The translations under genes and the position numbers were made by a program. Shown piece after piece: positions 7,340-40,897 of a stretch of 64,000 nt of DNA. Below the pieces are notes generated by a model. The model saw only the letters and a list, made by a program, of their open reading frames with translations. It did no database searches and was not told where the DNA came from. The stretch is from a virus (lineage: Duplodnaviria; Heunggongvirae; Uroviricota; Caudoviricetes), in the IMG/VR virus record IMGVR_UViG_3300031963_006119. One strand, written 5' to 3'. Each line of letters opens with the position of its first letter. The first letter of the stretch is position 1.

Positions 7340-7579
7340 TTGAGGTATCAAAAATCAGAACTTAAAGGACTTCGAGTTGAAGTTCGTAATGATGATGTTA
7401 ACGGAGCTCTACGAAGGTTCAAAAGGAAAGTAGAAGACAGCGGTCTCTTGCAAGATCTTAGAGATAAAGAGTTCTACGAAAAACCAACTACAGCTAGAAA
7501 AAAAGCAAAAGCGGCGGCAAGATCGCGCTGGCTTAAAAAACTATCACAAGATCCTTTTAATATAAAGCCAAGAAAGTAA
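7340..7579 (+). CDS. rpsU: ribosomal protein bS21 homolog (TTG start)
   Basis: VNGALRRFKRKVEDSGLLQDLRDKEFYEKPTTARKKAKAAARSR matches the bS21 signature (LRRFKR...REFYEKPT..RK.AK). Confidence 0.8.
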   Translation: MRYQKSELKGLRVEVRNDDVNGALRRFKRKVEDSGLLQDLRDKEFYEKPTTARKKAKAAARSRWLKKLSQDPFNIKPRK

Positions 7580-9896: not shown

Positions 9897-10202
9897 ATGA
9901 GTACTTTAGCAGATATCCAAATTGACGAAAAAATTAAACAGATCACTCAAGAGCCGGCCAAATACAAAGTTATTTTTATTAACGATGATGTTACCCCAAT
10001 TGAATGGGTAATAGAAGTTTTAGTGAAAACTTTTAAACATAGCCAAACTAGTGCAGAAGCACTTACACTTCAAATTCACAGCGAAGGTAGTGCAGTAGTT
10101 GGTATATACTCATACGAAATTGCAGAACAAAAAAGTGTAGAAACTACTGTAGCTTCAAGAGACAAGGGATTTCCCTTGCAGATTAGGTTAGAAAAAGAAT
10201 GA
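9897..10202 (+). CDS. clpS: ATP-dependent Clp protease adaptor ClpS
   Basis: YKVIFINDDVTPIEWVIEVL...A..L.L.IH.EG.AVVG matches ClpS core. Confidence 0.75.
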   Translation: MSTLADIQIDEKIKQITQEPAKYKVIFINDDVTPIEWVIEVLVKTFKHSQTSAEALTLQIHSEGSAVVGIYSYEIAEQKSVETTVASRDKGFPLQIRLEKE

Positions 10203-10771
10203 GCAATTTAAAAGAACTTACAAAAGAACAACATACAAATGCTGAACGCCAAGCATTTGTAAAAGTTATCGTAAGCGGTAAAATTAATCCCGAACTATAT
10301 GCCACATACTTGTGGAATCAACATAAAAAATATGATCTATTAGAAGCACTTGCAGGCGCACAAGGCCTACTCAGTGATTTACCAGATATCAGACGTAAAC
10401 TGAAAATTGAAGAAGATTTTGCAGAACTTTGGACAAAAGATGTTCAGCCAGTTATAGTACCTAGTACTATAGAATACATCAATCACATGCGAAACATAAT
10501 GATTGATGCTGACGCACTTATGGCACATATCTATGTACTACACATGGGAGATTTAAGCGGCGGCCAAATGATTGCAAAGATGGTTCCTGGTCAAGGTCGA
10601 ATGTATCAGTTCAATACAGACAAAGATAAGCTCAAAGAACTAATTAGAGCTAAGACAAAAGACAGCATGGCCGAAGAAGCAAAGTATGTATTTGAGTCAA
10701 GCACTAAATTATTTCAAGAACTAATGGAGTTAGACATTGAGCATTATTTGGAATCATCTGATCAAGTGTAA
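10199..10771 (+). CDS. heme oxygenase
   Basis: Heme oxygenase signature HMGDLSGGQMI and overall helical HO fold-length (190 aa). Confidence 0.65.
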   Translation: MSNLKELTKEQHTNAERQAFVKVIVSGKINPELYATYLWNQHKKYDLLEALAGAQGLLSDLPDIRRKLKIEEDFAELWTKDVQPVIVPSTIEYINHMRNIMIDADALMAHIYVLHMGDLSGGQMIAKMVPGQGRMYQFNTDKDKLKELIRAKTKDSMAEEAKYVFESSTKLFQELMELDIEHYLESSDQV

Positions 10772-11432
10772 AGACGACATCATAGCAGTTTTTGACCAAC
10801 AGGCTAATGAAGTACACGAAGATGGAATGGAACACTTTAATCAACCCGATTCAGGATGGATTAATAGGGTATGGTCTAATCAGTATGTACGCAGAGCTCA
10901 CATAGATGTAGTTGATGCTAGAGTCACTAAAGGTCTATGGATGATGCATGTATGCGTGTTTCCAGAACTAACCAACGGTGGACCTATATACGGCTTTGAT
11001 GTTATTGCCGGCAAAAATAAGATGACTGGAGCATTCCACGATTTTAGTCCGTCAAGCGGTGGTGCAGATCATCCTATGATATTAGGCTACAAAGATAGTG
11101 TAGAAAATTTTATTCCAAAAAAACAAAGAGAGTTGCCTCAGTGGGCTAAGAATATCTTTACAGACAAAATGTTAGCTGCCGGCAACGTAAACACCGAAGA
11201 AGAAGCAGTTGCAATTATAAACATAGCACTTAACAATCTTCATGCATATTTTGATGAAATCAGCGGATTCCAAAATACATGCGGTGTTGATGAAACCATC
11301 AAAGCACAGAATTGGTACTGTCACAATCAGCGACAGAATCCCCATACTCCTAACGTAATGAAAAGTTTAGGTTTAAATGAAGCAGACGTTGATAAGTTTT
11401 GCACAGACATGCTGTTCCCTAACATCGTATAA
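10737..11432 (+). CDS. ferredoxin-dependent bilin reductase (PebS/PcyA/PcyX-like); start uncertain
   Basis: Sits directly after heme oxygenase as in phage ho1-pebS/pcyX pairs. About 230 aa, right size. Overlaps HO 3' end so the real start may be Met at about 10827. Confidence 0.5.
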   Translation: MSIIWNHLIKCKDDIIAVFDQQANEVHEDGMEHFNQPDSGWINRVWSNQYVRRAHIDVVDARVTKGLWMMHVCVFPELTNGGPIYGFDVIAGKNKMTGAFHDFSPSSGGADHPMILGYKDSVENFIPKKQRELPQWAKNIFTDKMLAAGNVNTEEEAVAIINIALNNLHAYFDEISGFQNTCGVDETIKAQNWYCHNQRQNPHTPNVMKSLGLNEADVDKFCTDMLFPNIV

Positions 11433-11452: not shown

Positions 11453-13099
11453 ATGCGATTTTACGACTTTGGAAAAACTATTGTACATGAAGCAGTTGAA
11501 TCTGATCTTGAAGCACAAAAAGCTATACACGATCTAGATACAATTGGCGTTTTTCTTGGAAATCTTCCTCCAGAAAAAGAAAATGTAAAAGCATCTGTTG
11601 CGACAAAATTAAAAAATTTGTCATCATCAATAAGTGCATTTTTAGCCAAAGCTAAGATACAAACTGCACAACCTGCACAACCTGCACCTGCACAACCTGC
11701 ACCTGCACAACCTGCACCTGCACAACCTGCACCTGCACCTGCTAGAATGTCTACAGAGAGTATTTTAGAAGCAGAAGGTGCTAGCAGCGCAATTATTTCT
11801 ACTATCGATACACTAAAGCAACAAATAAAGGCGGTTGAAGCTTCAGATATTGATGAGAAAATAAAGAAAAATTTTATTAAACCGTTTAGACAACAATTAG
11901 ACGCTTTAACTAAACAAGTGGAAGAACTCCAGTTAGCAAAAGACGATGCTGTACAAAAACAACAAGAAGCTGAAAGTTTTGTTAAAGAAGTAAGTGTTTA
12001 CCTTGTAGCTTTAGGAAACAAAGTACAAGGTTATCAAGAAGAAAATTTAGAAAAAATGTCTTCTAAAGAAAAAACACAGGCAAAGAAAAAAGCAGTAAAC
12101 GCAGCTGAATTTACAAAAACATTAAAACAAGCCTTGTTTGGAAAAATTGTAGATATTCAAGAAGAGGCCAACGCATCACCAATTGAGATTAAACAGTTCT
12201 TAGCAGCCTGCGTAAAAGGCGATGTAATTAACATGTTATCAGTTATCGGTACCGATCGCGGAAATATTAAAAACTATGTAAATCCTAAATATAAAAAATT
12301 GTTTGATATATTTGTAGAACAGAATATTTTTAGTTATTCGCCAGGTAAAACATCTGGGGCAATTGGCCCAGGAGAAATGGCCTTATCAATGATGGGAAAC
12401 CCAGCTGAGAAAGCTAAAAAAGGTGACTTAAAAGTAGGCGATGTTGAAGTAGAAATTAAGGCCAGTGCATCTACAGGCGGTAGATTAAACAGTAAGAGTA
12501 TTGCAAAAGCAACTGCGGGATGGGATCTTTGGAGGAAAGGTATTGCTAATATTGTAGCAACTGCTCCTAAGAACGCATCTATTTTTACTACTGACAAAAA
12601 AGGCGCTAGGGTAAAAGTTGCAGTTAACAAATTTAATGGCGATCAATACAACATTACAAACGGCAAAGCAAAATTAGGCAATAAGTACAATTGGAATCCA
12701 AAAGGGTTTCAGGCACTGAACGAAGAAGTACTCGAGCCATACAGTAATTTTGATAAAACATTTGAACTATTTCATACTACTATCAAATCACTAGTGTTAA
12801 ACTTTGATTCTATTAAAAATGCTGATAAATTAATTGCTTCAGCTGTTGAGCAAGACGGCACTGTAGATTGGATGAAAATGAATAGAGCCTATACTAAAAT
12901 AGCATACGAAAGCTATCACCTAGCAGACGGCATAACAACAATTATGTTTTTAAGAACAGATACTTTAGATTATAGTATTATTAAAGACGGTAATGACCTA
13001 GTTAAGAAATTAGGAAAGACTGTAACAATGGGTGCAGGATTTAACTGGAATGACGATCAACAAACTCCAACTCCAGGTTATATGGCAGCTAAGTCGTAA
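11453..13099 (+). CDS. hypothetical protein with PAQPA tandem repeats
   Basis: 15-bp nucleotide repeat CAACCTGCACCTGCA x5 (11671-11750) encoding (PAQPA)n linker; rest coiled-coil/Lys-rich. Confidence 0.5.
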   Translation: MRFYDFGKTIVHEAVESDLEAQKAIHDLDTIGVFLGNLPPEKENVKASVATKLKNLSSSISAFLAKAKIQTAQPAQPAPAQPAPAQPAPAQPAPAPARMSTESILEAEGASSAIISTIDTLKQQIKAVEASDIDEKIKKNFIKPFRQQLDALTKQVEELQLAKDDAVQKQQEAESFVKEVSVYLVALGNKVQGYQEENLEKMSSKEKTQAKKKAVNAAEFTKTLKQALFGKIVDIQEEANASPIEIKQFLAACVKGDVINMLSVIGTDRGNIKNYVNPKYKKLFDIFVEQNIFSYSPGKTSGAIGPGEMALSMMGNPAEKAKKGDLKVGDVEVEIKASASTGGRLNSKSIAKATAGWDLWRKGIANIVATAPKNASIFTTDKKGARVKVAVNKFNGDQYNITNGKAKLGNKYNWNPKGFQALNEEVLEPYSNFDKTFELFHTTIKSLVLNFDSIKNADKLIASAVEQDGTVDWMKMNRAYTKIAYESYHLADGITTIMFLRTDTLDYSIIKDGNDLVKKLGKTVTMGAGFNWNDDQQTPTPGYMAAKS

Positions 13100-13214: not shown

Positions 13215-13661
13215 ATGAAATACATCACAGCATTGGGGGCAATGCTAGTGTTTGCAGGTAGTGCATTCGCTACAGAGCTAATACATAATTTTCAAAGTCC
13301 AGCCTTTATACCAGGCAATGGATTCAGTCAGCACGTCTTGTCAATCCATCAATTAGAAGAATCTAAAAAGAAAGAAATTAAGAGCGAAGAACTGGCTGCT
13401 ATAGCTAAGGCAGAAGCTGCTGCAAAACAAACAAATCTAAGTAAATTCCTTGTTAACGTAGAAGCACGTATCTACGCACAATTGTCTAAACAATTAGCAG
13501 ATCAAATGTTTGCTGAAGGTACAGGAACAAGCGGAACTATGGACTTTCAAGGAACTAATATCAGTTGGGTTAAATCGGCCACAGAAGTAACTCTAACTAT
13601 TATTGAGGCCAACGGTAGCCGAACAGAAATTACTGTACCTATAGCGAGCTTTGCATTTTAA
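13215..13661 (+). CDS. CsgF-like curli assembly protein
   Basis: Signal peptide then NFQSPAFIPGNGFSQ, matching the conserved CsgF N-terminal FQFxNPxF...G motif. About 130-aa mature size as for CsgF. Confidence 0.55.
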   Translation: MKYITALGAMLVFAGSAFATELIHNFQSPAFIPGNGFSQHVLSIHQLEESKKKEIKSEELAAIAKAEAAAKQTNLSKFLVNVEARIYAQLSKQLADQMFAEGTGTSGTMDFQGTNISWVKSATEVTLTIIEANGSRTEITVPIASFAF

Positions 13662-14908
13662 TGAAATTAATATTATCATTGTTACTTGTCACTGTTCTTT
13701 CAGGATGCGCCACCATACACATGGATGCGGCTAGGGAAGATGCTGTGGCTCTAACACCAAGAGAGAGTCTTACTAATAAAATACCACAGTTAGACGGTCC
13801 TCCAATGACCATTGCAGTTTACGGATTCACAGACAAGACAGGACAAATGAAACCTAATGATAGGTTAGCTGTGTTTTCAAAGGCAGTGACACAAGGATCT
13901 GAAGTATTTTTAATCAAAGCACTTCAAGACTCAAAAAATTGGTTTAAAGTTGTAGAGCGTGTGGGATTAGATAACCTTATTAAAGAGCGACAGTTGATAC
14001 GTAATCAACGCGAGGTTTATGAAGGTAAAGATGCTAGACCATTAAAGCCAATGACTGTGGCAGGAATTATGATCGAAGGTGGTATCATTGGCTACGACAG
14101 CAACATACGCAGTGGCGGCAACGGCGCACGATTCTTAGGTATTGGCGGAAGTCAACAATATCGTGTAGATGAAATTGTAATTAGTCTTAGACTAGTAAGT
14201 GTAAACAGTGGGGAAGTATTAATTTCTAATGCTGTGAGCAAAACTATCTATAGCACACAACATAACGTTGGCGTATTAAGATTTGTTGATGCTGGAACCA
14301 AAGCACTAGAATTAGAAAACGGGCAGGCTCTAAATGAACCTACAACATATGCTGTTCGTGTTGCTATAGAACAAGCAGTATATGACATGATCATTGAAGG
14401 CGAAAAGAAAGGAATGTGGAGATTTAAAAAATCTGTAACACAAGAAGTGCCTGTAGTAAAGGAGGAAAAGAAAGATGAGCTGGTTCAACCACAAACCTCA
14501 CAAGCACCCCAAGGAGCCCCAGAGCCCTTACCACCCGCACCGATCGAGCCCGTCAAGCAAGAAAGCAATGGAGCAAGCCAAACAGTCGAGCCCAAAGCAG
14601 AAAAAATAACAAGGATAGTTCCTATACAACCAGAACATTTAGTAGTTGTAGAAAAAGTAGAAACAAATACAAATACTGCTCCAGTAGTTAAGCCACCCGC
14701 TCAATTGTGGAGTTCTAGATATCTTAAAGAAGATTCGTTTGTATACAAAGAACCAAATGAAAAAAGTCAACGAACATGGCAATTGAAAAAGGGAACAGAA
14801 TTTAATATCATTTCTCCAGGTCCGGAGGGGTGGCATTATGTAGTAGACGCAGAGAAGCGTAAGGGGTATGTGCGAGCTGACGTGCTTTCAGAACACAGAC
14901 CAAAATGA
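13661..14908 (+). CDS. csgG: CsgG-family curli secretion channel lipoprotein with C-terminal Pro-rich linker and SH3b-like domain
   Basis: Lipobox LSGCAT. IMIEGGIIGYDSNIRSGGNGARFLGIGGSQQYRVDEIVISLRLVSVNSGEVL is near-identical in pattern to the E. coli CsgG core. Extra about 140 aa with PxP linker and W...GYV SH3b-like end. Confidence 0.8.
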   Translation: MKLILSLLLVTVLSGCATIHMDAAREDAVALTPRESLTNKIPQLDGPPMTIAVYGFTDKTGQMKPNDRLAVFSKAVTQGSEVFLIKALQDSKNWFKVVERVGLDNLIKERQLIRNQREVYEGKDARPLKPMTVAGIMIEGGIIGYDSNIRSGGNGARFLGIGGSQQYRVDEIVISLRLVSVNSGEVLISNAVSKTIYSTQHNVGVLRFVDAGTKALELENGQALNEPTTYAVRVAIEQAVYDMIIEGEKKGMWRFKKSVTQEVPVVKEEKKDELVQPQTSQAPQGAPEPLPPAPIEPVKQESNGASQTVEPKAEKITRIVPIQPEHLVVVEKVETNTNTAPVVKPPAQLWSSRYLKEDSFVYKEPNEKSQRTWQLKKGTEFNIISPGPEGWHYVVDAEKRKGYVRADVLSEHRPK

Positions 14909-14987: not shown

Positions 14988-15659
14988 ATGAAAAAAAGAA
15001 TCACAGGCGGTGGTAAGTTGTCGAGAAAAGTACTTACAATTCTAATGATGGCTGGAATGCTGTCATCGGGGGCGTGGGCCAACGATGTTTATGTTGATCA
15101 GATCGGTGATAATACATCTGTATCTATTACACAAACAGGAGCAGGCAACACAGTAAACGGTAATGTTGGTGGCAACGGCAACGTTGATGATGCTGCTATA
15201 ATTCGTGGCGATCTCAATAATGTAACTATAAGTCAAATTGGTGCTAGCAATACACTTAGTATGATTGTTAACAATGAATCTAATGGAACAGGATCTACCA
15301 TAGTAGTTTCAGCAGATGGTAGCAACAACAATCAAACTATCGGTTGTGGTACTGCATTAAGTTCAAGTTGTAATGCTAGTATTATTAGATCTGAAATTAC
15401 AGGTAATAGCAACAATACTATACAGACGTTAAGTGGTGGCGTTGTGCAGAGTAAAATTAATATTAATGGCGATTACAACAATGTAACACATACAGCATCA
15501 GGTGTAGGTTTACATAATGGAGAAATAACAGTTTCAGGCAGTGGCACTAATCAACTTGCCAATGCAGTGACACTAACACAGAGTGGAGTATTCGCTAAAA
15601 ATGCAGTTATTACCAGCAACGGTTCTAATAATAACGTTATTGTTACTCAGTCCGATTAA
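14988..15659 (+). CDS. secreted curlin-repeat (CsgA/CsgB-like) protein
   Basis: Signal peptide. Repeated Q-x-G-x-x-N-x-(x)5-x-Q units (DQIGDNTSVSITQTGAGNTVNG, ISQIGASNTLSM, TLTQSGVFAKNAVITSNGSNNNVIVTQ) resembling curlin repeats. Asn/Ser/Thr/Gly-rich. Confidence 0.55.
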   Translation: MKKRITGGGKLSRKVLTILMMAGMLSSGAWANDVYVDQIGDNTSVSITQTGAGNTVNGNVGGNGNVDDAAIIRGDLNNVTISQIGASNTLSMIVNNESNGTGSTIVVSADGSNNNQTIGCGTALSSSCNASIIRSEITGNSNNTIQTLSGGVVQSKININGDYNNVTHTASGVGLHNGEITVSGSGTNQLANAVTLTQSGVFAKNAVITSNGSNNNVIVTQSD

Positions 15660-16704
15660 TAGCTTTGCCGGTGTTGGTAAAGTTACTGAACAGACTGGGC
15701 CTACAGAAATTGTAAGGAATAAGAAAAGTATTCCTTCTAGTCTAAACACGGGTGTGGAGATGAATGACACCATCTCCACAGCTAAAGCCAAAGCTGAATT
15801 AACCTTTGAAGATAAAACTACAGTTAAACTTACAGAACACAGTAAAATGATCATAGATGATTTTGTCTATGATCCAAAAAAAGGTTCTGGTAAATTAGCC
15901 ATCAATATGGCCTTAGGCACAGCTCGTTATGCAAGCGGACAAATAGCAAAAAATAATCCGCAACAGGTTGCTATCAAAACACCTACCGCTACTATTGCTG
16001 TGCGAGGCACTGATTTTTCTATGACAGTAGATGAATTAGGACGCAGTCTTGTAGTACTACTTCCTAGTTGTTCTCCAAACGGAGGCTGTGTTACTGGTGC
16101 TATCGAAGTTAGAAATCTAGCAGGTGTTGTGATATTAGATGTACCATATCAAGCTACATTAGTTAACAGTGCTTACACAGTACCTACAGAACCTACAATT
16201 GTAAAATTAGACCAAGCAAACATTAACAACATGTTGATCATTAGCAAACCTAAAGAAGTTGCAGATACAGAACAGGCTGGCCTAGCTAAGAAAGAAAAAT
16301 CTATTTTAGATTTTAACGAACTAGATATCGATTTGTTAAAGTTTAGTGCATTAGATGAAAATTCTTTAGATAAAAAAAATGAGTTAGATAGAAATGATTT
16401 AAATGCAGACCTATTAGCATTTAATGAATTAAATGAACTTGATAGACAAAATGCTAGTTTGTTGAGCAATGAATTAGACAATCCAATATTACCAGGATAC
16501 TCAGCAAACAAACCATTAGGCTTGTTGTATTATTTTAATGATGATCAAACTAAGGTTACATTATACAAGGCAGGTACACACAATACCACAGCAACATTTG
16601 ATACAACAAAGAACATTACATTTACCTTAATTCAAGATGGGCAGACTATTATTCAAAACGTGAATAAAGGTAGTACCAGCACTCTTATTGTAACACAAAA
16701 TTAA
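15583..16704 (+). CDS. secreted FecR-domain protein (start uncertain, overlaps upstream gene by about 55-77 nt in another frame)
   Basis: Signal peptide LLPATVLIITLLLLSPINSFA. FecR-like beta region (..TTVKLTEHSKMIIDDFVY...GTARY...VAIKTPTATIAVRGTDFSM). C-terminal Asp/Leu/Asn repeat region. Confidence 0.5.
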   Translation: MEYSLKMQLLPATVLIITLLLLSPINSFAGVGKVTEQTGPTEIVRNKKSIPSSLNTGVEMNDTISTAKAKAELTFEDKTTVKLTEHSKMIIDDFVYDPKKGSGKLAINMALGTARYASGQIAKNNPQQVAIKTPTATIAVRGTDFSMTVDELGRSLVVLLPSCSPNGGCVTGAIEVRNLAGVVILDVPYQATLVNSAYTVPTEPTIVKLDQANINNMLIISKPKEVADTEQAGLAKKEKSILDFNELDIDLLKFSALDENSLDKKNELDRNDLNADLLAFNELNELDRQNASLLSNELDNPILPGYSANKPLGLLYYFNDDQTKVTLYKAGTHNTTATFDTTKNITFTLIQDGQTIIQNVNKGSTSTLIVTQN

Positions 16705-16719: not shown

Positions 16720-16750
16720 ATAAAAAACCCGCCAGGCGGGTTTTTTATGG
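16720..16750 (+). terminator. rho-independent terminator
   Basis: AAAAACCCGCC-AGG-CGGGTTTTTT. Confidence 0.7.
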
Positions 16751-16762: not shown

Positions 16763-17317
16763 ATGAAAATACTTGAAATAATCCAAGAAGCAGAAGCTAG
16801 CGACGATGAATTGCGTCAGCGGTACGGTGACTTTGATCCAGAAGATAAGCCAATGTTGCCTACTACTAAAGTTGGTGGAGCGCCGGCACCGACGCTATGG
16901 ACTGCATACGAAGCTATTCAAGATATATTAGGTAGAAGTCGAGTAACAGACGACGATGATGACTTAGAGCCCGGCATGTATTATGTCTACCCCAGTAACG
17001 AAACACCAATGTTTAAAGATACCGAAGAATCTGGCCCTGGCGGCAGTATTAATATTCCAAATTTAGAAAGCAAGGCTGCTCGTGATGTTGCGATTGCAGC
17101 TCACGAAGCATGTCATGCTTATGTACACGATCGTACAAAAGGTAGCGGGCGTGTTTATGCTAATGAAAAGATTATTAATAATCTAGCAGAGAAGTGGTTA
17201 CGTAAACATCTAAGCGGCACAGCATTACACGTTGCACTAGAAACTATCACAGGCAGTCGTATTAGTTATGGTAAGGATTACATGCCTAAAGGTCCAACAT
17301 CGGACAAAAGAAAATGA
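16763..17317 (+). CDS. hypothetical protein
   Basis: ORF after terminator; HEACHAY motif could be a metalloprotease-like HExxH, unverified. Confidence 0.45.
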   Translation: MKILEIIQEAEASDDELRQRYGDFDPEDKPMLPTTKVGGAPAPTLWTAYEAIQDILGRSRVTDDDDDLEPGMYYVYPSNETPMFKDTEESGPGGSINIPNLESKAARDVAIAAHEACHAYVHDRTKGSGRVYANEKIINNLAEKWLRKHLSGTALHVALETITGSRISYGKDYMPKGPTSDKRK

Positions 17318-17778
17318 AAATAAATGAACTAATGGCGGCAACTTCAGTGCCGTGGAAATGGACTTATCGCAGTGAGCGTCAGGCCACTGCTGAATTTACT
17401 GTGGGCAATGTGCTGTATGAATTCAAAGCAAAGAATTCAGAATACGATCATGTAGATGCAGACCGTGATGTAGTAGGCTACGATGATGAAGAAGAAAATG
17501 AAGAAGTTGACTACCGTGGTTACTGGGAAATTAGTTTTAACGGTGACGGCAAAACTAGCATGACCGGAACTGGTAACTCCGCACAAGTTATATCAGCTAT
17601 CACTGCTATAATAAAAGATTTCTTAATAACATACGACGATAAGATTCAAGTGATAGAATATGATGTACAAGGGTCTAGCGGTAGGGCAGGAGTATATGGT
17701 CGTATTTTTAATAAGCTGTTGCCAAATTGGACACAAGAAGATGGCTCACTACACGATGTGGAGGTAAAAAGACCATGA
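17314..17778 (+). CDS. hypothetical acidic protein
   Basis: ATGA overlap with previous gene. Confidence 0.45.
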   Translation: MKINELMAATSVPWKWTYRSERQATAEFTVGNVLYEFKAKNSEYDHVDADRDVVGYDDEEENEEVDYRGYWEISFNGDGKTSMTGTGNSAQVISAITAIIKDFLITYDDKIQVIEYDVQGSSGRAGVYGRIFNKLLPNWTQEDGSLHDVEVKRP

Positions 17779-18068
17779 GAAAAATATTATTAATTTTATT
17801 AGTTTGTTTGTCTAGCACAGTCAATGCACAATTTAGATATGATTATCCCTTGTTGTGTGACAGTACTGAAAAGATCATAAAAAGCCTTGGGGAAAATTAT
17901 AAAGAAATATTAACCTGGGGCGGAAAGCATTCTAGTGATAATAGTGCCTACAGTTTATGGATCAATGAAAAAGAAGGATCTTGGACATTACTTAAAATGA
18001 CTCCTGAAACTAGTTGCATACTAGGAGTAGGCACAGAATCTAAAATTAAACTAGGTACGTCAATATAA
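17775..18068 (+). CDS. small secreted protein
   Basis: Signal peptide MRKILLILLVCLSSTVNA; internal Met start overlapping upstream stop. Confidence 0.45.
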   Translation: MRKILLILLVCLSSTVNAQFRYDYPLLCDSTEKIIKSLGENYKEILTWGGKHSSDNSAYSLWINEKEGSWTLLKMTPETSCILGVGTESKIKLGTSI

Positions 18069-20113
18069 TGATTAAAAAAATACTTTTAAGTCCATGGACT
18101 GCTCTATTAACTCTAGCGTTAGTAGTAGGCATACGAATAGCAGATCCTACATTCGTTGAAAGTGTAAGACTACGCTACTTTGATACATTAATTACTTCTA
18201 AAGCACCTACAGAAAATAACATCTATACAGTTAACATAGACGAAGCTGCTTTAGACAAATACGGCCAATGGCCATTACCCAGGGCAGAATATGCTAAAAT
18301 TATTAAAGATTTGTATGATCGTGGTGCTGGCCTTGTCGTTCTCAATGTGCTTATGGCTGAGCCTGATCGCACTGGTGGCGACTCAACTCTTGCCTCAGCT
18401 CTTAAACAATATCCTGTAGTACTAGGATCAGTGCCTGCTGATAAAACTAAAAATATACCACGCAACCCAGGCAGTGCTGTACTAGGGCCAGAGTGGTTAG
18501 ATCAAATTGTACAATACCCGGGCCTTATTGCTAACGTACCGCAGTTAGAAAATTCAGCAGCAGGAATTGGTATTGTATCAACTATGCCTGAAGTTGACGG
18601 AGTGAATCGTCGATTACCTCTTATCGTTGCAGTTGGCGATAAACTTTATCCTAGCATAGCTATGGAAACACTGCGAGTAGCAGCTGGCGATTCAACCTTT
18701 CAAATCAAACTTTTTGAAGGCGGTGTTGAAAAAATGCGTATACCTAAGTTTGGTCCTGTTACTACAGATAACTTAGGTCGGGTATGGATTGATTGGAGTC
18801 AACAAAGTAAAAATGTTAGTTTACTTGAGTTGCCTAAAAACCTAGATGGTGCTATTGTTATTGTTGGTCCAACCGCAGCTGGTATCAGTAATCCTGTACC
18901 AACCAGTATGGGTGCTGTATTCCCACATGCTGTGCAGGCTAGTGTTATTGCTACAATGATTAACGGTATAGTTATACAGAGACCAGATTATGCCAACGGT
19001 GTAGAAATCTTAACACTAGTATTAGCAGGTATACTATTATTATTCTTAACAAGGTGGACTTATGTTGGTATTATTTCAGGTGTTGTTATTATTGGGACTA
19101 GTGTATTCGCTGGCTCCTATGCTTATGCACAGTTTAGTTGGCTCTTCGATTCAACTGGTATTGTGGTCGGGCTTGTTCTGGTTATGCTTCATGCTTATGG
19201 CATTAAGTTTATAAGCGAGTTCTTACAGAAACAAGCAATCAAGAAACAATTTGCAGGCTATGCTAGCCCTACAGTAGTTAGACTGTTACAAGAAAATCCA
19301 GACTTAATTAAGAAGGGTGTTAAGAAAGAAGTCAGTATACTGTTCTCAGACTTACGCGGCTTTACACCCTTAGGTGAAAGTTTTGGAGATGACGTTGCAG
19401 GTCTTACAAAAATAATGAACGGCTACATGGATGCCATTACACAACCTGTACTAGATGCAGACGGTATGATTATTAAGTACATTGGTGATGCTAGTATGCA
19501 TATACATAATGCACCTATTGAAGATTTGAACCATCCTGCTACAGCAGTACGCACAGGATTGAAGATGCTTAAAGCAGTGGAGAAATTTAATGAAGAAATC
19601 ATTATACCTCAAGGAAGACCTGCCGTTGGCATGGGTGCTGGTATTAATACAGGGTTGGGATATATTGGAGAGATGGGATCAACTGCAAGACACAGCTACG
19701 ATGTACTAGGTGATGCTGTTAGTACTGCTGCCCGTATTGAAAGTAAATGTAAAGAGTATGGATGCTTGTTGCTAGTTGGCGGCGCAACAGTTGATCGCTG
19801 TGGAGATGACTTCTTCTTCCTTAAGATTGATGATCTTGCTGTAAAAGGTAAGAGTGTAGGAATTGCTATCTATACAGTATTAGATGATATCACTGATACG
19901 TATCATGTTGCTAAAAAAATACACGAATCAATGCACGGTGCATACAGAGGACAAAAGTTTAGTACGGCTATTAGCATGTGTAAACAACTAAAAGGTCAGT
20001 TTGACGGCAAAATGGACAAGTATTACGACATGTGGATAGAGCGTTGTGAGTTCCAGCAGACTCAAACTCTACCTAAAGATTGGAACGGCGTTTTTATAGC
20101 GACAAGTAAATAA
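18068..20113 (+). CDS. membrane CHASE2-sensor class III adenylate/guanylate cyclase
   Basis: N-terminal TM, periplasmic CHASE2-like region, 3-4 TM helices. Cyclase catalytic core ILFSDLRGFTPLGE...YIGDASM...GINTGLGYIGEMGS. Confidence 0.7.
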   Translation: MIKKILLSPWTALLTLALVVGIRIADPTFVESVRLRYFDTLITSKAPTENNIYTVNIDEAALDKYGQWPLPRAEYAKIIKDLYDRGAGLVVLNVLMAEPDRTGGDSTLASALKQYPVVLGSVPADKTKNIPRNPGSAVLGPEWLDQIVQYPGLIANVPQLENSAAGIGIVSTMPEVDGVNRRLPLIVAVGDKLYPSIAMETLRVAAGDSTFQIKLFEGGVEKMRIPKFGPVTTDNLGRVWIDWSQQSKNVSLLELPKNLDGAIVIVGPTAAGISNPVPTSMGAVFPHAVQASVIATMINGIVIQRPDYANGVEILTLVLAGILLLFLTRWTYVGIISGVVIIGTSVFAGSYAYAQFSWLFDSTGIVVGLVLVMLHAYGIKFISEFLQKQAIKKQFAGYASPTVVRLLQENPDLIKKGVKKEVSILFSDLRGFTPLGESFGDDVAGLTKIMNGYMDAITQPVLDADGMIIKYIGDASMHIHNAPIEDLNHPATAVRTGLKMLKAVEKFNEEIIIPQGRPAVGMGAGINTGLGYIGEMGSTARHSYDVLGDAVSTAARIESKCKEYGCLLLVGGATVDRCGDDFFFLKIDDLAVKGKSVGIAIYTVLDDITDTYHVAKKIHESMHGAYRGQKFSTAISMCKQLKGQFDGKMDKYYDMWIERCEFQQTQTLPKDWNGVFIATSK

Positions 20114-20114: not shown

Positions 20115-20447
20115 TTACTTACCTGTACTGTCAAATTTCTGACTTTGGCTTTGATATTTGTTAATAATAAAATCTAATTCTGCTCGATCATCGTTATTAA
20201 GTTGTTGATCAAGCATTGTTTTGTGTTCTAGCACCATTGCTAGTTTTGTGTTCATGCGAATCATGTCGTTGTCTAACATTCGTACACGATCTACTAACTT
20301 AATCAGCGTACCCATTGTTTCACCTATGATAGGATCTATTTCCTCAGTTACCCACTTCCATATAAAGTAGATAAAATATCCCATGCCCATTGCGGCAATA
20401 ATAGGAAATCCATACTCATTAATTGCTTTTGCAATATCATCTAACAT
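20115..20447 (-). CDS. small membrane protein (opposite strand)
   Basis: 110 aa, one TM (FPIIAAMGMGYFIYFIW) plus coiled coil. Converges on the cyclase stop. Confidence 0.45.
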   Translation of the reverse strand: MLDDIAKAINEYGFPIIAAMGMGYFIYFIWKWVTEEIDPIIGETMGTLIKLVDRVRMLDNDMIRMNTKLAMVLEHKTMLDQQLNNDDRAELDFIINKYQSQSQKFDSTGK

Positions 20448-20725
20448 TAGTCTCTCCTTGCATCGTTCTTACCTTCGTTAGCCGCAATTCGGTCTACGTT
20501 AGGTTTTACTTTTAGTGCATAGCTCATGAGAGCATCGATCTTTACTAGATCGTTGTTCATAGTTTGTACACGATTATCAAGCTGTGCAATAATGTTTTTT
20601 AGTGTTTTTACTGATCCAGTAACGCCCGCTAGAATAAACTTCAGCGAGATAAACACAAAGATTCCGGCCGCTAGTGCCCCTGCGATCGGAAATCCAACAT
20701 CTCCTACTAATGTTAGAAAATCCAT
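20447..20725 (-). CDS. small membrane protein (opposite strand)
   Basis: 92 aa, N-terminal TM (FPIAGALAAGIFVFISL) then coiled-coil. Stop/start overlap with 20115-20447. Confidence 0.45.
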   Translation of the reverse strand: MDFLTLVGDVGFPIAGALAAGIFVFISLKFILAGVTGSVKTLKNIIAQLDNRVQTMNNDLVKIDALMSYALKVKPNVDRIAANEGKNDARRD

Positions 20726-24184: not shown

Positions 24185-24406
24185 ATGGAGAAAAAAATGG
24201 AAGAAAAAGAAGCTAAACGCTGGGTATTTAAAGCAGAGGATATTTTTGAGGACATTCCCACAGATCCTGAGAACTGTCTAATGAAAATTCCTGAAGAAGT
24301 ATCTAATGCTATAGGGCTAGCACCTGGCGATCGAGTAAAAGTTTTATGGGGTGATCAGGGCACTATTATTATAGAAAAGGCAAAAGAAACAGATGCCAAA
24401 GAATGA
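24185..24406 (+). CDS. hypothetical small acidic protein
   Basis: RBS GGAGAAAAAAATG; 73 aa. Confidence 0.4.
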   Translation: MEKKMEEKEAKRWVFKAEDIFEDIPTDPENCLMKIPEEVSNAIGLAPGDRVKVLWGDQGTIIIEKAKETDAKE

Positions 24407-24614
24407 CGATCTACTAGAAGTTGAGGGCGAAATAGTAGAGGTTTTACCAAATCAAACATTTAACGTACTATTAGATGTGAACAAAAGCATGATTGTCTGC
24501 TACACCAGCGGACGTATGCGTCAAAACAAAATCCGATTAGTAGCAGGAGATCGTGTAAAAGTAGAAATGAGCTCATACGATCTATCCAAAGGACGTATTT
24601 CATTCCGTATATAA
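24393..24614 (+). CDS. infA: translation initiation factor IF-1 homolog
   Basis: LEVEGEIVEVLPNQTFNVLLDVNKSMIVCYTSGRMRQNKIRLVAGDRVKVEMSSYDLSKGRISFR aligns along its length with bacterial IF-1 (S1-like OB fold; ..G.V.E.LPN..F.V.L.NG......SGKMR.N.IR...GD.V.VE...YDLSKGRI.FR). Confidence 0.8.
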   Translation: MPKNDDLLEVEGEIVEVLPNQTFNVLLDVNKSMIVCYTSGRMRQNKIRLVAGDRVKVEMSSYDLSKGRISFRI

Positions 24615-24709: not shown

Positions 24710-25228
24710 ATGCAGATCTACACCAAAGGAAGTACACGAAAAACCCAAAAAATCGTTAAGGATTTGACTCGCTTCTGCGCAGAAATGCTCATGAGCAAGC
24801 GCCTTGCAGACGGTTTGTTGATCCGTATAGAATTTATTAAAGATCTTGACAATCAGTATGATGGCGATTGCGAGTATGTTGATGAAGAATCCCGCCCAAA
24901 AGAGTTCCTTATTAGAGTTAACAACTCATTAAAATTAAGCAAAAAACTTAGAACCATATGCCATGAAATGGTACATGTAAAACAGTATGCAACAGGTGAA
25001 ATGAAATACATGAGCCGTCCTGCCCGTTTTACCAAATTCCAAGGCACACTTTACCCAGACGAATTTGACTATTGGGATAGTCCGTGGGAAATTGAAGCAT
25101 TTGGACGTGAACCCGGATTGTATACCAGATGGATCGATTCTAGAGGTCATACCAAAAACATCATTTTTGACACACGTCACGTAGACGACGATATAACTTC
25201 TGAAGAGATAGAATATATTAAAGGTTGA
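24710..25228 (+). CDS. HExxH zinc metallopeptidase-like protein (paralog of 30933-31337)
   Basis: ICHEMVHVKQYATGE motif; same HEMVHV block in 30933 ORF. Confidence 0.45.
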   Translation: MQIYTKGSTRKTQKIVKDLTRFCAEMLMSKRLADGLLIRIEFIKDLDNQYDGDCEYVDEESRPKEFLIRVNNSLKLSKKLRTICHEMVHVKQYATGEMKYMSRPARFTKFQGTLYPDEFDYWDSPWEIEAFGREPGLYTRWIDSRGHTKNIIFDTRHVDDDITSEEIEYIKG

Positions 25229-27870: not shown

Positions 27871-28728
27871 ATGAAAATTACAGTTGTATCAGATCTGCAT
27901 TTAGAGTTTTCTGATTGCTACGATATTAAGAACGCAGACAATGCTGATGTTCTGATTCTCTCAGGCGACATTATGGTTGCTGAGGATCTGCACGACCATC
28001 CAAACTTTGATTTCAATCCTTATAGTCATGGTGCGTTTGCTGACCTTGGTCGCAAGCAACAACGAGTAGCCACCTTCCGTGATTTCTTAAAGCGGATGAG
28101 CAACTTGTTTCCACATGTAATCTATATTGCAGGTAATCATGAGTTCTATCATGGCAAGTGGGTTAAAGGTATTCAGTACCTCAGAGATGAGTGTGCTAAG
28201 TTTCCTAATGTCTACTTCTTAGAGCGTGATGTTAAAGTTATTGACGATGTTGTGTTTGTCGGCGGAACTTTGTGGACTGACATGAACAAGCATGATCCGT
28301 TGACTCTGCATGCTGTGCGTGATATGATGAACGATTTCCGCATCATTAAAAACGATGAAAGAGGATTCACTCCGTTAAAACCTGCTGACACAGTTATTCG
28401 TCACCGTGAAACGCTTCAGTATGTTAAGCATATTCTTAGCGAACACAAAGACAAACGCTGTGTAGTAGTTGGACATCATAGTCCTAGTTTGCAAAGCATA
28501 CACCCTACATATGCAAGTGAGTTTTTGATGAACGGTGCATATCACAGTGATTTGAGTGAGTTCATTTTGGATCATCCACAAGTCAAACTGTGGACACACG
28601 GACATACTCATCATCCGTTTGATTATATGATTGGCGAAACACGAATTGTGTGTAACCCACGTGGTTATGAAAACGATGGTTACAGCGAAGACACAGGTTG
28701 GAATCCAAACATCATAATTGAAGTCTAA
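27871..28728 (+). CDS. calcineurin-like metallophosphoesterase
   Basis: DLHLEF, GDIMVA, GNHEFYHG, GHHSPS, HGHTH motifs. Confidence 0.65.
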   Translation: MKITVVSDLHLEFSDCYDIKNADNADVLILSGDIMVAEDLHDHPNFDFNPYSHGAFADLGRKQQRVATFRDFLKRMSNLFPHVIYIAGNHEFYHGKWVKGIQYLRDECAKFPNVYFLERDVKVIDDVVFVGGTLWTDMNKHDPLTLHAVRDMMNDFRIIKNDERGFTPLKPADTVIRHRETLQYVKHILSEHKDKRCVVVGHHSPSLQSIHPTYASEFLMNGAYHSDLSEFILDHPQVKLWTHGHTHHPFDYMIGETRIVCNPRGYENDGYSEDTGWNPNIIIEV

Positions 28729-28963
28729 CGTGAGCGAAGATATCTTTGCTGACTGGAAGAAGAATCGGTTCATAGTGGCCGATTCTTCTCTTACCGGTAC
28801 AGAAAAACACATAATAGTTTTAACTGATTTAGCATACTGGATAGAACATGCTGATGCTCTTGTAGAATGGTGCAGACATAATCCAAAAGCACAAACGCAG
28901 GGTATGACAGTTGAAATATCAGATGACAAAACTCTAACGCATTTTATATTAAAGTGGACATGA
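28718..28963 (+). CDS. small protein, member of LRW/LKW-tail paralog family
   Basis: Ends ...THFILKWT; compare 28954, 32808, 33116 ORFs. Confidence 0.4.
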   Translation: MKSNVSEDIFADWKKNRFIVADSSLTGTEKHIIVLTDLAYWIEHADALVEWCRHNPKAQTQGMTVEISDDKTLTHFILKWT

Positions 28964-29217
28964 ACATAGAACAAGATATCATTAATCGGGCTGGTAAGCG
29001 AATGTCCGACGAGATAGACTTTCATATCTTATCCGAAATGTTGATTGAATTAGGTTGGACTAAAATTGTGCTCAAACCAATGACACAAGAAACAGGGCAA
29101 GTTCTTGACACTTGGGTTGAGAAAAATGTCAAAGGACCTTTTGAGACAATGGGCTTAGTGTGGTTGTTTCAAGATTCTAAAGATGCTACAATGTTTATTT
29201 TACGGTGGGTCTCTTAA
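28954..29217 (+). CDS. small protein, LRW-tail paralog family
   Basis: Ends ...TMFILRWVS. Confidence 0.4.
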   Translation: MDMNIEQDIINRAGKRMSDEIDFHILSEMLIELGWTKIVLKPMTQETGQVLDTWVEKNVKGPFETMGLVWLFQDSKDATMFILRWVS

Positions 29218-30932: not shown

Positions 30933-31337
30933 ATGGAATTCAAAGTCAGCGGTAGTAAACGAAATAAAAAGTTTGTAGAAGCTATTCTTCCTAGTTTGAT
31001 TACACAACTTGGTTTGGATTCAAGTCGTAAGGCTGTTATAATCCAAATTGAAGATGACGGAACAGCTAATATGGGATCAACTATTCCTGTTGACGTGTTA
31101 GACTCTTATATTGTTGTAGTTAAGCCACATCGTAATCTTAAAGAAATTGGGTTTACACTAGCACATGAAATGGTGCATGTCCGTCAAATGGCCAAGGGCA
31201 TACTAAAAAGTGTCAAAAATGGTTATACGTGGGCCGGCAAGCGTTATAGCAACAAAACAAAATATTTAGATATGCCCTGGGAACAGGATGCATTTGCTCG
31301 GCAAGAAATTATTTTTCGTAGGGCGATTGAAGAATGA
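30933..31337 (+). CDS. HExxH zinc metallopeptidase-like protein (paralog of 24710-25228)
   Basis: LAHEMVHVRQMAKG. Confidence 0.45.
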   Translation: MEFKVSGSKRNKKFVEAILPSLITQLGLDSSRKAVIIQIEDDGTANMGSTIPVDVLDSYIVVVKPHRNLKEIGFTLAHEMVHVRQMAKGILKSVKNGYTWAGKRYSNKTKYLDMPWEQDAFARQEIIFRRAIEE

Positions 31338-32574: not shown

Positions 32575-32807
32575 CTTACACTTTAGCATTAGGAATCCGT
32601 GGAGCAAAAAATGGCGCAACATTCGCTGTTGGCATGGTAATACTCCTTGGGATCGCAAGCACTGGGAAGTTGAAGTCATACAAAGTGCAGATCTAATTGC
32701 TTTTACATTTTCATTAACACACAGACAGGACCATGCTGGTATTAGAATTAGTACCGCATTACTCGGATATGAAATACAAGCGACGATCTACGATTCAAGA
32801 CACTGGG

Positions 32808-33134
32808 ATGAAAAGACAGCGTCCTATCACAGTTGAAGACTATCTAGCCAGCGAGGATGAACTAGTGTTCTTTTGGGATCCAAGCTCAATTAAACCGCCT
32901 GAGGATTTAATGAGCAAGGCTATACGAGTTCTTATTAGCGATCCCAAAGATCATCACGGTGTTCGAGGACTTGATATTAAAAGATGGGCTCAAGCCAACT
33001 GCAAAACTTTCTTTTGGTATGATGTTACTGACGTAAGTGATGCAAGTTATATCACTGACGAAATTCACGCATACTATTTTATCGATGAAAAAGATGTAAC
33101 ATTTTTTATGCTTCGATGGGGCGGACAGATGTGA
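32808..33134 (+). CDS. small protein, LRW-tail paralog family (start chosen at internal Met)
   Basis: Ends ...VTFFMLRWGGQM; ORF 32567-32836 overlaps and may instead be real upstream. Confidence 0.35.
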   Translation: MKRQRPITVEDYLASEDELVFFWDPSSIKPPEDLMSKAIRVLISDPKDHHGVRGLDIKRWAQANCKTFFWYDVTDVSDASYITDEIHAYYFIDEKDVTFFMLRWGGQM

Positions 33135-33355
33135 TAGAATATCGTCATCTTGATCATGAAGTTCTAATTGATGCTCATAAACACGGACCTGCCAGTAAAT
33201 GGTGCATTGATCAGTTTGGAGCTCGATGGGAAGCTATAGGTAATCGATCTGGACGCTGGTGTCTCTTTTGGGCCGGCCGTGATGCTCCTAAAAAATATAG
33301 GTTCTGCTTTGCTGACGAGCAAGATATGGTTTGGTTCGTATTAAGGTGGTTGTAA
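33116..33355 (+). CDS. small protein, LRW-tail paralog family
   Basis: Ends ...MVWFVLRWL. Confidence 0.4.
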   Translation: MGRTDVIEYRHLDHEVLIDAHKHGPASKWCIDQFGARWEAIGNRSGRWCLFWAGRDAPKKYRFCFADEQDMVWFVLRWL

Positions 33356-38447: not shown

Positions 38448-38689
38448 TGACAGTTAAAAAAACATACGCAGATACTGTTGATCTGCACTGCACGGATAAA
38501 AATGAAATAGTGCCAGCTGAAATCCTAGAATTTCGCCCAGGCATGCTTATTAGTGTAAGTATACAAAGAAAAATTAAAATGATACTTAAATTTAATCATC
38601 GAGGCAATAACTATGTTGGCTCGATGGCAGGTCTTGAGTTTACTACTGCTGGCCCAAAAGAAACTATTACTTACGAAGGAAGAAGATAA
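38447..38689 (+). CDS. hypothetical small protein
   Basis: 80 aa. Confidence 0.35.
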
Positions 38690-39306
38690 TGCCACTAATC
38701 CCAATGGTTGTTGAACAAGAGACTCGCGGCGAGCGTTCATATGATATTTACAGCCGCTTGCTCAAAGATCGAATTGTTATGCTCAACGGCCCTGTAGAAG
38801 ATAATATGGCTAATGTAATTGTAGCACAGTTATTATTTTTAGAAGCAGAGAATCCAGACAAAGACATTAACCTATATATTAATTCGCCTGGCGGTGCAGT
38901 TACCGCAGGACTAGCTATCTACGACACAATGCAGTACATCAAATGTGATATTCGTACTATTGTCATGGGTCAGGCATGTTCAATGGGCTCGTTCCTAGCA
39001 CAAGCAGGCACGGCAGGTAAGCGAGTAGTACTGCCTGAAAGCCGTACTATGATACATCGAGTTAGTTCAGGTACTCCTGGAACACGTGGTTCAGTTCATG
39101 TACAAGAACTTCAATTTGAAGATGCTATTCGTTCAATGGAAGAAAGTAAAAAACTCAACAAGCGATTAACCGAGCTGTATGTCAAACACAACACCAAAGG
39201 CAAACAATACGATGAGCTTTTTGAAACAATGAAATTTGATACTTTCTTAAATGCACAAGAAGCGGTTGATTACGGTTTAGCAGATAAAGTTGTAGAGAAA
39301 CGATAA
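38689..39306 (+). CDS. clpP: ATP-dependent Clp protease proteolytic subunit ClpP
   Basis: [54 protein letters not shown], catalytic Ser in GQACSMGS, His in MIHRV; near-collinear with bacterial ClpP. Confidence 0.85.
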
Positions 39307-40170: not shown

Positions 40171-40243
40171 TCCTCAGTAGCACAGCGGTAGTTGCACTTG
40201 ACTGTTAATCAAGGTGTCCGTGGTTCGATCCCACGCTGAGGAG
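40171..40243 (+). tRNA. tRNA-Asn (GTT)
   Basis: Manual cloverleaf: acceptor TCCTCAG/CTGAGGA, anticodon loop CTGTTAA, T-loop GGTTCGATCC, CCA encoded. Confidence 0.75.
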
Positions 40244-40251
40244 CCAATTTA

Positions 40252-40338
40252 GGAGCGTGGGCCGGATGGTAAGGCAGCGGTTTGCTAAACCGTAGATCAC
40301 GTAAAAAGGGTCACAGGGTTCGACTCCCTGACGCTCCG
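40252..40338 (+). tRNA. tRNA-Ser (GCT), long variable arm
   Basis: Acceptor GGAGCGT/ACGCTCC, anticodon loop TTGCTAA, 87 nt with extra arm, CCA encoded. Confidence 0.7.
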
Positions 40339-40349
40339 CCAAATTAAAT

Positions 40350-40880: not shown

Positions 40881-40897
40881 CCAAAGTGTTAGTTTTT

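Follow-up and report, generated by a model that had tools for sequence, protein, structure and literature searches.

A CHASE2-sensor class III cyclase gene at the end of a conserved curli-FecR cassette in an uncultured phage

Described systems closest to the phage cyclase

The subject of this study is a membrane cyclase gene at positions 18068-20113 of a 64,000-nucleotide stretch of viral DNA (IMG/VR record IMGVR_UViG_3300031963_006119, Caudoviricetes), which we call the window. Its closest described counterparts lie in the curli cassettes of pelagiphages. The curli cluster of pelagimyophages was described by Zaragoza-Solas et al. 2020 (PMC7029224), the curli genes of phage Melnitz were discussed by Buchholz et al. 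2022 (PMC9004378), and the GenBank record of phage HTVC008M labels gp019 an adenylate/guanylyl cyclase. Wittmers et al. 2022 (PMC9599517) reported the whole cassette, including FecR and an "adenylate cyclase", in the same order in podo- and myo-pelagiphages, detected its genes at all 65 GOV2.0 stations, presented a cyclase tree and proposed an alphaproteobacterial origin with transfer between phage families. Their supplement gives CHASE2 and Guanylate_cyc labels with in-situ metatranscriptome values. They read FecR as an iron-related regulator, found FecR and the cyclase outside bacterial curli operons, described a second curlin-repeat gene between FecR and the cyclase as frequent but not universal, and placed one or more histidine kinase genes before CsgF. 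PMC9599517 already documents the gene in phages, with its cassette, its domains and its oceanic expression, and catalytic residues and topology are absent from the accounts of the cassette in PMC7029224, PMC9004378 and PMC9599517. We find that the window cyclase is the last gene of this conserved phage type VIII secretion system (T8SS, curli)-FecR-cyclase cassette and not a stand-alone gene, and we add a reinterpretation of FecR, a phage-specific active-site variant, the cassette-specific small proteins tmA and tmB, and the finding that no cyclic nucleotide (cNMP) receptor is detectable in the phages.

The cassettes of HTVC008M (gp014-gp019) and Melnitz (gp97-gp104) resemble the window in gene order, in the CHASE2 and Guanylate_cyc architecture of the cyclase and in the presence of tmA and tmB. 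The closest orthologues from isolates are Melnitz gp104 (Methylophilales phage, 53% identity over the full length) and HTVC008M gp019 (Pelagibacter phage, 35%). The window differs in that its phage belongs to a different, apparently much larger uncultured lineage, and three small open reading frames (ORFs) and a hairpin stand in place of the second curlin gene. Its tmA and tmB are convergent and downstream of the cyclase, not directly upstream of CsgF on the same strand as in Melnitz (gp97/98) and HTVC008M (gp011/012). No histidine kinase was found, Pfam giving no HisKA or HATPase match anywhere in the 64 kb, including the region before CsgF. HTVC008M keeps a canonical Asn in the active site where the window and Melnitz have Ser.

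Among bacterial proteins, CyaD1, CyaD2 and CyaK of Sinorhizobium meliloti have the same CHASE2 and class III cyclase architecture as the window protein. The FecR-domain gene SMc02177 adjoins cyaD1 (SMc02176), clr is also a neighbour, and alphaproteobacterial relatives of the window protein have the same FecR/cyclase/cNMP-receptor neighbourhood. The S. meliloti signal enters via an outer-membrane beta-barrel (NsrA is listed with the system), and CyaD1 without CHASE2 makes cyclic AMP (cAMP) constitutively (PMC5498481). By analogy, these cyclases, with their outer-membrane-barrel signal and their constitutive output once CHASE2 is removed, serve as the working precedent for the phage protein. They belong to a bacterial symbiosis system that has the CRP-type receptor Clr and no curli genes, whereas such a receptor was not found in the phages.

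A second precedent is the Burkholderia "BiofilmReg" operon and its Pseudomonas aeruginosa counterpart (PMC5192318), in which a periplasmic FecR-domain protein is encoded beside a CHASE2 receptor with one transmembrane (TM) helix, CHASE2 and three further TM helices, the layout described for CHASE2 kinases in the same paper. The operon is linked to biofilm formation. It differs from the window in its output, a histidine kinase and response regulator, in the LysM domain on its FecR protein and in not being phage-borne.

Architecture and active site of the cyclase

The cyclase gene and the parts of its product are as follows.

18068-20113, plus strand: predicted CHASE2-sensor class III adenylate cyclase, 681 amino acids (aa), ATG start (ORF, Pfam, PHROG)
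18110-19033, plus strand: CHASE2 domain, predicted periplasmic, residues 15-322, with TM1 (about residues 4-24) beside it (Pfam PF05226, hydropathy)
18992-19213, plus strand: three predicted TM helices, residues about 309-382 (Kyte-Doolittle peaks at 309-327, 324-349 and 356-382)
19223-19321, plus strand: predicted cytoplasmic linker resembling a transducer element, residues 386-418 (conservation, alignment to 6fht_A)
19322-19855, plus strand: class III nucleotidyl cyclase catalytic domain, residues 419-596 (Pfam PF00211, PDB alignments)
19868-20110, plus strand: C-terminal extension, residues 601-681, without a Pfam match (aligned through residue 681 in several bacterial relatives)

Both domain assignments lie far above the curated Pfam thresholds. 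CHASE2 (PF05226) matched with E=2.3e-39, its 136 bits exceeding the cut-off of 26.3 and the alignment spanning positions 2-256 of the 257-position profile, and Guanylate_cyc (PF00211) matched residues 419-596 with E=4.5e-15 and 56.2 bits against a cut-off of 21.9. A first-pass annotation, made from the letters of the DNA, had proposed this 681-aa frame with an N-terminal TM helix, a CHASE2-like sensor, a multi-TM segment and a class III cyclase domain marked by an F-S-D-L-R-G-F-T block. Its coordinates proved exact, the frame opens with ATG, the PF05226 match and hydropathy agree with the sensor and TM segments, and the block falls at residues 426-433 inside the PF00211 match. The molecular description, a class III cyclase of the membrane that is encoded by a phage and has a CHASE2 sensor, is confirmed as right. 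NCBIfam gave no family name for the protein.

The predicted layout of one TM helix, CHASE2, three TM helices and a C-terminal cyclase domain is the standard one of CHASE2 receptors and predicts a sensor in the periplasm and a cyclase domain in the cytoplasm. The linker at residues 386-418 is the best-conserved segment of the protein, with the lowest mean column entropy (0.49) and numerous invariant residues between 381 and 411, and it lines up with the segment before the catalytic domain in chain 6fht_A. Together with the catalytic domain (entropy 0.67) it makes up the most conserved part of the protein.

A PDB search found 38 solved cyclase chains that match the catalytic domain at E<=1e-3, and residues were assigned by the PDB alignments to CyaB (3r5g), Cya2 (2w01 and 6fht) and CyaC (1wc0). 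P. aeruginosa CyaB (PDB 3R5G), a class IIIb enzyme, is among the best solved matches (E=1.8e-17), and its metal-binding Asp, Lys and Arg align with those of the window protein. The sensor of CyaB is a MASE2 membrane domain, not CHASE2. Conservation was counted over 66 distinct phage sequences and compared with 71 bacterial relatives aligned by hmmalign. D428, the first metal-binding Asp (in FSD), and D474 (in GD) align with the metal Asp residues of CyaB, Cya2 and CyaC and are invariant (66/66). K470 (66/66) and D545 (65/66) form the ATP-type specificity pair, Lys with Asp, Thr or Ser marking ATP and Glu with Cys, Gly or Ser marking GTP. The K470 column holds Lys in CyaB and in 6fht, an engineered adenylate cyclase; in chain 2w01_A the K470 and D545 columns hold Glu and Gly. 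The transition-state Arg, R556, is invariant, and R430 and K593 are also in place, invariant or nearly so. The substrate residues, which the first-pass annotation had proposed to inspect, are of the Lys/Asp type that specifies ATP, not of the Glu/Cys type. With its metal Asp residues, Lys and Arg kept, the active site is of the ATP type, and on these residues the protein would be an enzyme that takes ATP as its substrate.

The first-pass annotation had also considered a pseudo-cyclase with missing catalytic residues. The metal Asp residues, Lys and Arg are all present and invariant among the 66 homologues, and one residue is absent: the transition-state Asn of the V-N-x-A-x-R motif is Ser552 (in GDAVSTAAR) in the window cyclase. 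Ser occupies this position in 65/66 phage sequences, in which the remaining catalytic residues are invariant or nearly so. Asn552 and Thr/Ser545 are kept by 71/71 bacterial relatives and by HTVC008M-like phage branches, and the same signature is found in CyaB, with Thr and Asn at the columns of D545 and S552. The bacterial signature K...(T/S)...N...R thus stands against K...D...S...R in the window. In a mammalian cyclase, the same Asn-to-Ser change reportedly lowered kcat 30-100-fold (work attributed to Yan et al. 1997). Given this change, the output of the cyclase could be low, and since the transition-state Asn is Ser throughout the clade of the window, full cyclase activity is not to be assumed.

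The window and Melnitz carry the double change Thr/Ser545 to Asp and Asn552 to Ser, which is fixed in their clade. In a crude neighbour-joining tree without support values, the D545/S552 sequences, including these two, form one clade that is sister to the phage branches with the bacterial signature. The D545/S552 pair therefore looks to have arisen once, in phages, and to have been retained through a large radiation. We read it as a probable remodelling of a functional site and not as decay, because the coupled change has a single origin, is held to a divergence of about 53% identity and lies in the best-conserved part of the protein. An attenuated or pseudo-cyclase, serving chiefly as scaffold or receptor of the secretion module in the inner membrane, would account for the Ser found in the phages where the bacterial and HTVC008M-like proteins have Asn. 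Two Asp, Lys, Asp, two Arg and Lys are nevertheless invariant across a clade diverged to that extent, the catalytic domain and linker are the best-conserved parts of the protein, and Ser, itself fixed, comes with a second fixed change in the manner of a remodelling, so that we consider loss of the enzymatic role quite unlikely.

The single phage origin of the coupled substitution and its retention throughout the radiation also bear on the product. D545 and S552 might reshape the base or ribose pocket such that the enzyme makes cGMP, a pyrimidine cNMP or a deoxy or other nucleotide and not 3',5'-cAMP, with interference with host cyclic-nucleotide immunity as a possible use. Pycsar PycC has a homologous class III-type fold, and PADLOC PycC models match the window domain at E=5e-14. 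K470 and D545 are nevertheless the classical adenine-specifying pair, the PycC models score 50 bits against 56 bits for the generic cyclase profile, and PADLOC found neither a Pycsar or CBASS-type effector nor any other defence context among the neighbours of this cyclase with its purine-type K/D pair. We give an altered product a low probability. Identity of the window protein with PycC itself was rejected, the scores of up to 50 bits not exceeding those of the generic Pfam cyclase and pointing to generic fold similarity.

The curli-FecR-cyclase cassette and its proposed working

The cassette runs in the order CsgF, CsgG, curlin-repeat protein, FecR-domain protein, variable insert and cyclase, with tmA and tmB besides. 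Synteny was counted over 85 phage loci, 69 of the related viral loci having at least 6 kb of upstream sequence. In 65/69, all four of CsgF, CsgG, curlin and FecR precede the cyclase in the same orientation. In Melnitz and HTVC008M the order is CsgF, CsgG, curlin-repeat protein, FecR, a second curlin-like or hypothetical protein and, last, the cyclase. The window has the following features upstream of the cyclase.

13215-13661, plus strand: CsgF homologue, 148 aa, Sec signal peptide, first core gene (Pfam PF10614, E=2.7e-14)
13661-14908, plus strand: CsgG outer-membrane lipoprotein pore, 415 aa, lipobox LSGC (Pfam PF03783, E=4.5e-54, residues 48-254)
14988-15659, plus strand: curlin-repeat (CsgA/B-like) secreted protein, 223 aa, signal peptide (Curlin_rpt, family hidden Markov model)
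15583-16704, plus strand: FecR-domain periplasmic protein, 354-373 aa by the start chosen, N-terminal signal or anchor (Pfam FecR PF04773)
16720-16748, plus strand: intrinsic-terminator-like hairpin AAAAAACCCGCCAGGCGGGUUUUUU, just 3' of FecR (minimum free energy -16.7 kcal/mol, z=-4.83)
16763-17317, plus strand: variable insert s184, with an HExxH motif (no Pfam, NCBIfam or PADLOC family; 12/85 loci)
17314-17778, plus strand: variable insert s154 (no Pfam, NCBIfam or PADLOC family; 5/85 loci)
17775-18068, plus strand: variable insert s97, with a signal peptide (no Pfam, NCBIfam or PADLOC family; 14/85 loci)

The end of CsgF overlaps the start of CsgG (ATGA), and stop/start overlaps of the same type join s184, s154, s97 and the cyclase. 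Sec-type N-termini are present on CsgF, the curlin protein and FecR, as is a lipobox on CsgG. The Curlin_rpt match is borderline (E=4.8e-4, 20.4 bits where the cut-off is 20.7), the family model matches at E=1e-74 on an identical locus (L083), N.V.I.Q.G repeat units begin at residues 32, 77 and 192, and the Melnitz and HTVC008M orthologues are annotated as curlin-associated. The FecR match covers residues 62-157 (E=7.4e-12; phrog_37870, E=3e-88) of a protein with a single hydrophobic segment at residues 7-25, for which NCBIfam gave weak LipL45/Lsa33 matches alone. The CsgG homologue is of unusual length: behind the CsgG domain come a Pro/Gln-rich linker and an SH3b-like C-terminal extension, in which residues 360-410 match SH3_3 and SH3_4 below the Pfam threshold.

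In 55/65 loci FecR and the cyclase are separated by a second curlin-like ORF; the window instead has the three unrelated small ORFs, which together with the hairpin put the FecR and cyclase genes 1.36 kb apart. The hairpin has a symmetric A-run, GC stem and T-run, and 0/200 shuffles fold as well. It is confined to the window's own lineage among 53 distinct loci, and so is not a general feature of the cassette, and it marks the site where the second curlin gene was replaced. Scans of the window for sigma-70 promoters (34 promoter-like sites against 33 expected) and terminators (10 terminator-like sites against 6.8 expected) were at chance level.

Downstream, the stop codons of the cyclase (20113) and tmA (20115) are 1 nt apart.

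20115-20447, minus strand: tmA, 110 aa, a bitopic small membrane protein whose TM helix contains GFPI and which also has a coiled coil (phrog_18771, E=3.5e-29)
20447-20725, minus strand: tmB, a paralogue of tmA, 92 aa (phrog_18771, E=3.8e-30)

These are the two convergent small membrane proteins that the first-pass annotation had seen at 20115-20725; both ORFs are real, and they are paralogues in one PHROG family whose consensus has the GFPI TM helix and an LDNR...D...R coiled-coil motif. The pair is syntenic in about 75/85 loci, in most of them downstream of the cyclase and convergent with it. In a set of 50,697 phage records, tmB is confined to the six that carry the cyclase, and its 77% identity to the Melnitz copy makes it the most conserved component of the cassette. 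tmA and tmB are conserved, cassette-specific components. In Melnitz and HTVC008M it is homologues of these two (92-116 aa) that stand before CsgF, where PMC9599517 places its "histidine kinases"; the family has no conserved His and no kinase domain, and the text and supplements of that paper give no definition of its "HK".

The bacterial survey used one genome per species. Genuine bacterial relatives of the window cyclase are 25-31% identical and come mostly from marine Alphaproteobacteria (Ruegeria, Roseibium/Labrenzia, Tagaea). In 33/63 bacterial loci the gene immediately 5' of the CHASE2 cyclase, on the same strand, encodes a FecR-domain protein, and neither CsgG, CsgF, curlin nor tmA/tmB was found within 10 kb in the bacterial FecR-cyclase loci. 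In Rhodobacteraceae KLH11 the pair is confirmed by Pfam and flanked by hemC and hemE. FecR and the CHASE2 cyclase are thus an ancestral alphaproteobacterial gene pair, which phages kept and joined to a curli (type VIII secretion) module. We take the phage cassette for a fusion of the bacterial FecR-cyclase unit with a T8SS module because of this bacterial synteny and the two literature precedents. That FecR regulates iron is here less plausible than that it is the partner which the CHASE2 cyclase has had from its bacterial ancestors.

With a CRP-seeded profile, a cNMP-binding gene was found within 5 kb of the cyclase in 19/71 bacterial loci, and 9/9 of those sampled were confirmed by Pfam. These neighbours include full CRP-type regulators (Tagaea), stand-alone binders of about 160 aa, and SulP/STAS or glutaminase fusions. 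In two loci (L119, 12703-14952; L145, 12660-14762) the gene directly downstream of the cyclase joins a cNMP-binding domain to a SulP/STAS transporter or to a STAS-bearing glutaminase; such fusions could be direct metabolic targets of the cyclase product.

We hold with moderate confidence that the gene encodes an active adenylate cyclase, gated by CHASE2, through which an envelope module carried by the phage delivers its output to the cytoplasm. This module would comprise the CsgG/CsgF outer-membrane pore, the secreted curlin-repeat protein, the periplasmic FecR protein, the two small inner-membrane proteins and the cyclase. The catalytic domain is expected to work as a homodimer because every catalytic residue type is present on one chain. 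During infection, CHASE2 would most likely restrain the cyclase until a cue arrives from the periplasm or envelope, with the FecR protein or the pore as a possible relay. ATP would then be converted by the enzyme to cAMP, which would act on a host-encoded or non-canonical receptor.

Besides the Ser552 substitution, several observations weigh against this reading. Pfam found no cNMP-binding domain or protein in the window. A home-made CRP-seeded profile detected no cNMP receptor in the window and the 85 phage loci at E<=10, GAF and other receptor types not having been searched, and six-frame translation of the whole Melnitz and HTVC008M genomes yielded no ORF that matches the cNMP/CRP profile at E<=10. 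In culture, Melnitz showed no clumping or fibres (PMC9004378). The S. meliloti FecR-domain gene smc02177 was tested and is dispensable for signal perception. In the window, the strong terminator-like hairpin stands between FecR and the cyclase unit. Identity patterns also reveal mosaic inheritance, in which FecR co-varies with CsgF, CsgG and curlin, not with the cyclase. At locus L078 the CsgF/CsgG/curlin/FecR proteins are 85-91% identical to those of the window and the cyclase 64%, and at loci L003, L006 and L007 the same four are 40-46% identical and the cyclase 80%. Three blocks recombine independently: CsgF-CsgG-curlin-FecR, the cyclase, and tmA with tmB, which co-vary with each other. This pattern argues that the specific partner of FecR lies in the secretion block. 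Any contact between FecR and CHASE2 would have to tolerate the exchange of partners, and a relay through FecR is a step that we infer, given this mosaic inheritance and the dispensability of smc02177.

The mosaic inheritance, the hairpin and variable insert, the dispensable smc02177 and the CRP-type regulators beside bacterial relatives would all suit a stand-alone auxiliary cyclase that is merely co-located in a hypervariable island and raises cAMP to manipulate CRP-type regulation of the host. Despite recombination, however, the cyclase stays 3' of FecR in 65/69 loci, the order is the same in myo- and podo-pelagiphages (PMC9599517), and the adjacency of FecR and cyclase, seen in 33/63 bacterial loci, is older than the phages. 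No CRP-like gene was found in the phages, and hosts of the SAR11 type have very little transcriptional control. We therefore regard a stand-alone role as fairly unlikely.

The receptor results also bear on where the product acts. The phages appear to have kept the sensor and enzyme of the bacterial unit and not its reader; with no recognisable phage cNMP receptor, the product would therefore act on a host protein or on an unrecognised receptor type. The first-pass annotation had suggested that a phage cNMP could rewire host CRP regulation. A review of SAR11 describes transcriptional control as minimal, and the known hosts of related phages (SAR11, OM43) have very little regulation; a literature search on cAMP-CRP in SAR11 returned no direct statement, only that transcriptional regulation is minimal. 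The suggestion is uncertain for the known hosts because SAR11 transcriptional control is minimal.

A further-reaching version of the envelope-module reading is speculative, and we rate its chances as slim. The cassette might be a self-contained phage outside-in sensor, in which an extracellular curlin fibre or the pore signals through FecR to the CHASE2 cyclase, and a tuned or non-canonical nucleotide, made by the phage-specific D545/S552 site, acts on the highly conserved tmA/tmB or a host factor. The cues would come from the envelope or the neighbourhood, for example cell contact, superinfection or envelope damage, and the output would be the timing of lysis or exclusion.

The source phage and the wider meaning

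The cyclase matches phrog_35576 over its full length (E=2e-192). A megablast of the cassette against the 50,697 phage records gave no match, and relatives were found by protein-level searches only: at least 8,000 cyclase relatives in a large protein database and 284 related IMG/VR loci, several of these on contigs of 245-364 kb. Overall, relatives lie on contigs of 245-380 kb, and among the matches listed 27 contigs, with lengths up to 320 kb, carry the identical cyclase sequence. The window holds a 28-tRNA array (40171-47509) that covers most amino acids. Its auxiliary genes encode radical SAM, ribosomal protein S21, IF-1, GMP reductase, Hsp20, ClpS, ClpP, heme oxygenase, bilin reductase, AhpC, an AhpD-like protein, a SpoT-like HD domain, DNA ligase, endonuclease VII and QueD. 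The best isolate matches of another window protein are to jumbo Pseudomonas phages at about 35% identity. Because of the large contigs of the relatives, the 28 tRNAs, the auxiliary genes and these distant jumbo-phage matches, the source is a large uncultured phage, distant from any isolate, which shows that the cassette extends beyond the pelagimyophages of about 140 kb into a much larger uncultured phage lineage.

Some close relatives of the cyclase were found in bins labelled as bacterial metagenome-assembled genomes (MAGs; loci L086-L090, L093 and L096), as would be expected if the gene were bacterial and lay on a mis-assigned contig or in a prophage remnant. These MAG matches, at 36-63% identity, carry the full phage cassette including tmA/tmB and are best read as phage DNA in bins. 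Moreover, two isolated and sequenced phages (Melnitz and HTVC008M) carry the cassette, true bacterial homologues are at most 31% identical and lack curli genes, and the tRNA array and gene content of the window are those of a phage. A bacterial source is hardly credible.

Further features of the window lie outside the cassette or beside it. The SpoT-like HD_4 hydrolase (51180-51689), S21 (7340-7579), IF-1 (24393-24614), ClpP (38689-39306) and ClpS (9897-10202) genes form its translation and stress complement, and a gene for a Bax1-I family membrane protein (44303-44977) sits within the tRNA array. The genes for heme oxygenase and a ferredoxin-dependent bilin reductase stand side by side at 10199-11432, just upstream of the cassette, and the pair is found upstream of the cassette in 45-51 of the 85 related loci. 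The gene at 11453-13099, just before CsgF, encodes a 548-aa protein with a (PAQPA)n repeat, which Pfam, PHROG and NCBIfam assign to no family and which no more than 5 related loci have. The window holds a single copy of the T4-type late-promoter motif TATAAATA, fewer than expected; this copy is not at the cassette and lies 18 nt before the start of the (PAQPA)n gene. Metalloprotease-like HExxH motifs occur in three small proteins without a Pfam match: HEACHAYVH in the insert at 16763-17317, and HEMVHV[KR]Q in the apparent paralogues at 24710-25228 and 30933-31337. Four small adjacent ORFs at 28718-29217 and 32733-33355 end alike in an F[IMV]L[RK]W motif and so look like members of one family of small paralogues.

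The presence of curli genes in phages of non-curliated hosts is a puzzle for which three papers offer several competing speculations. The cyclase family is tied to cNMP receptors in bacteria, and none was detected in the phages. If the outside-in sensor were real, it would be a nucleotide second-messenger pathway brought into cells otherwise without one. The factors recognised by CHASE2 domains have not been identified (PMC5192318), and the phage cassette, as a small, self-contained module, is a convenient system for finding the CHASE2 signal, with a phage-specific active-site variant that is open to direct biochemical testing.

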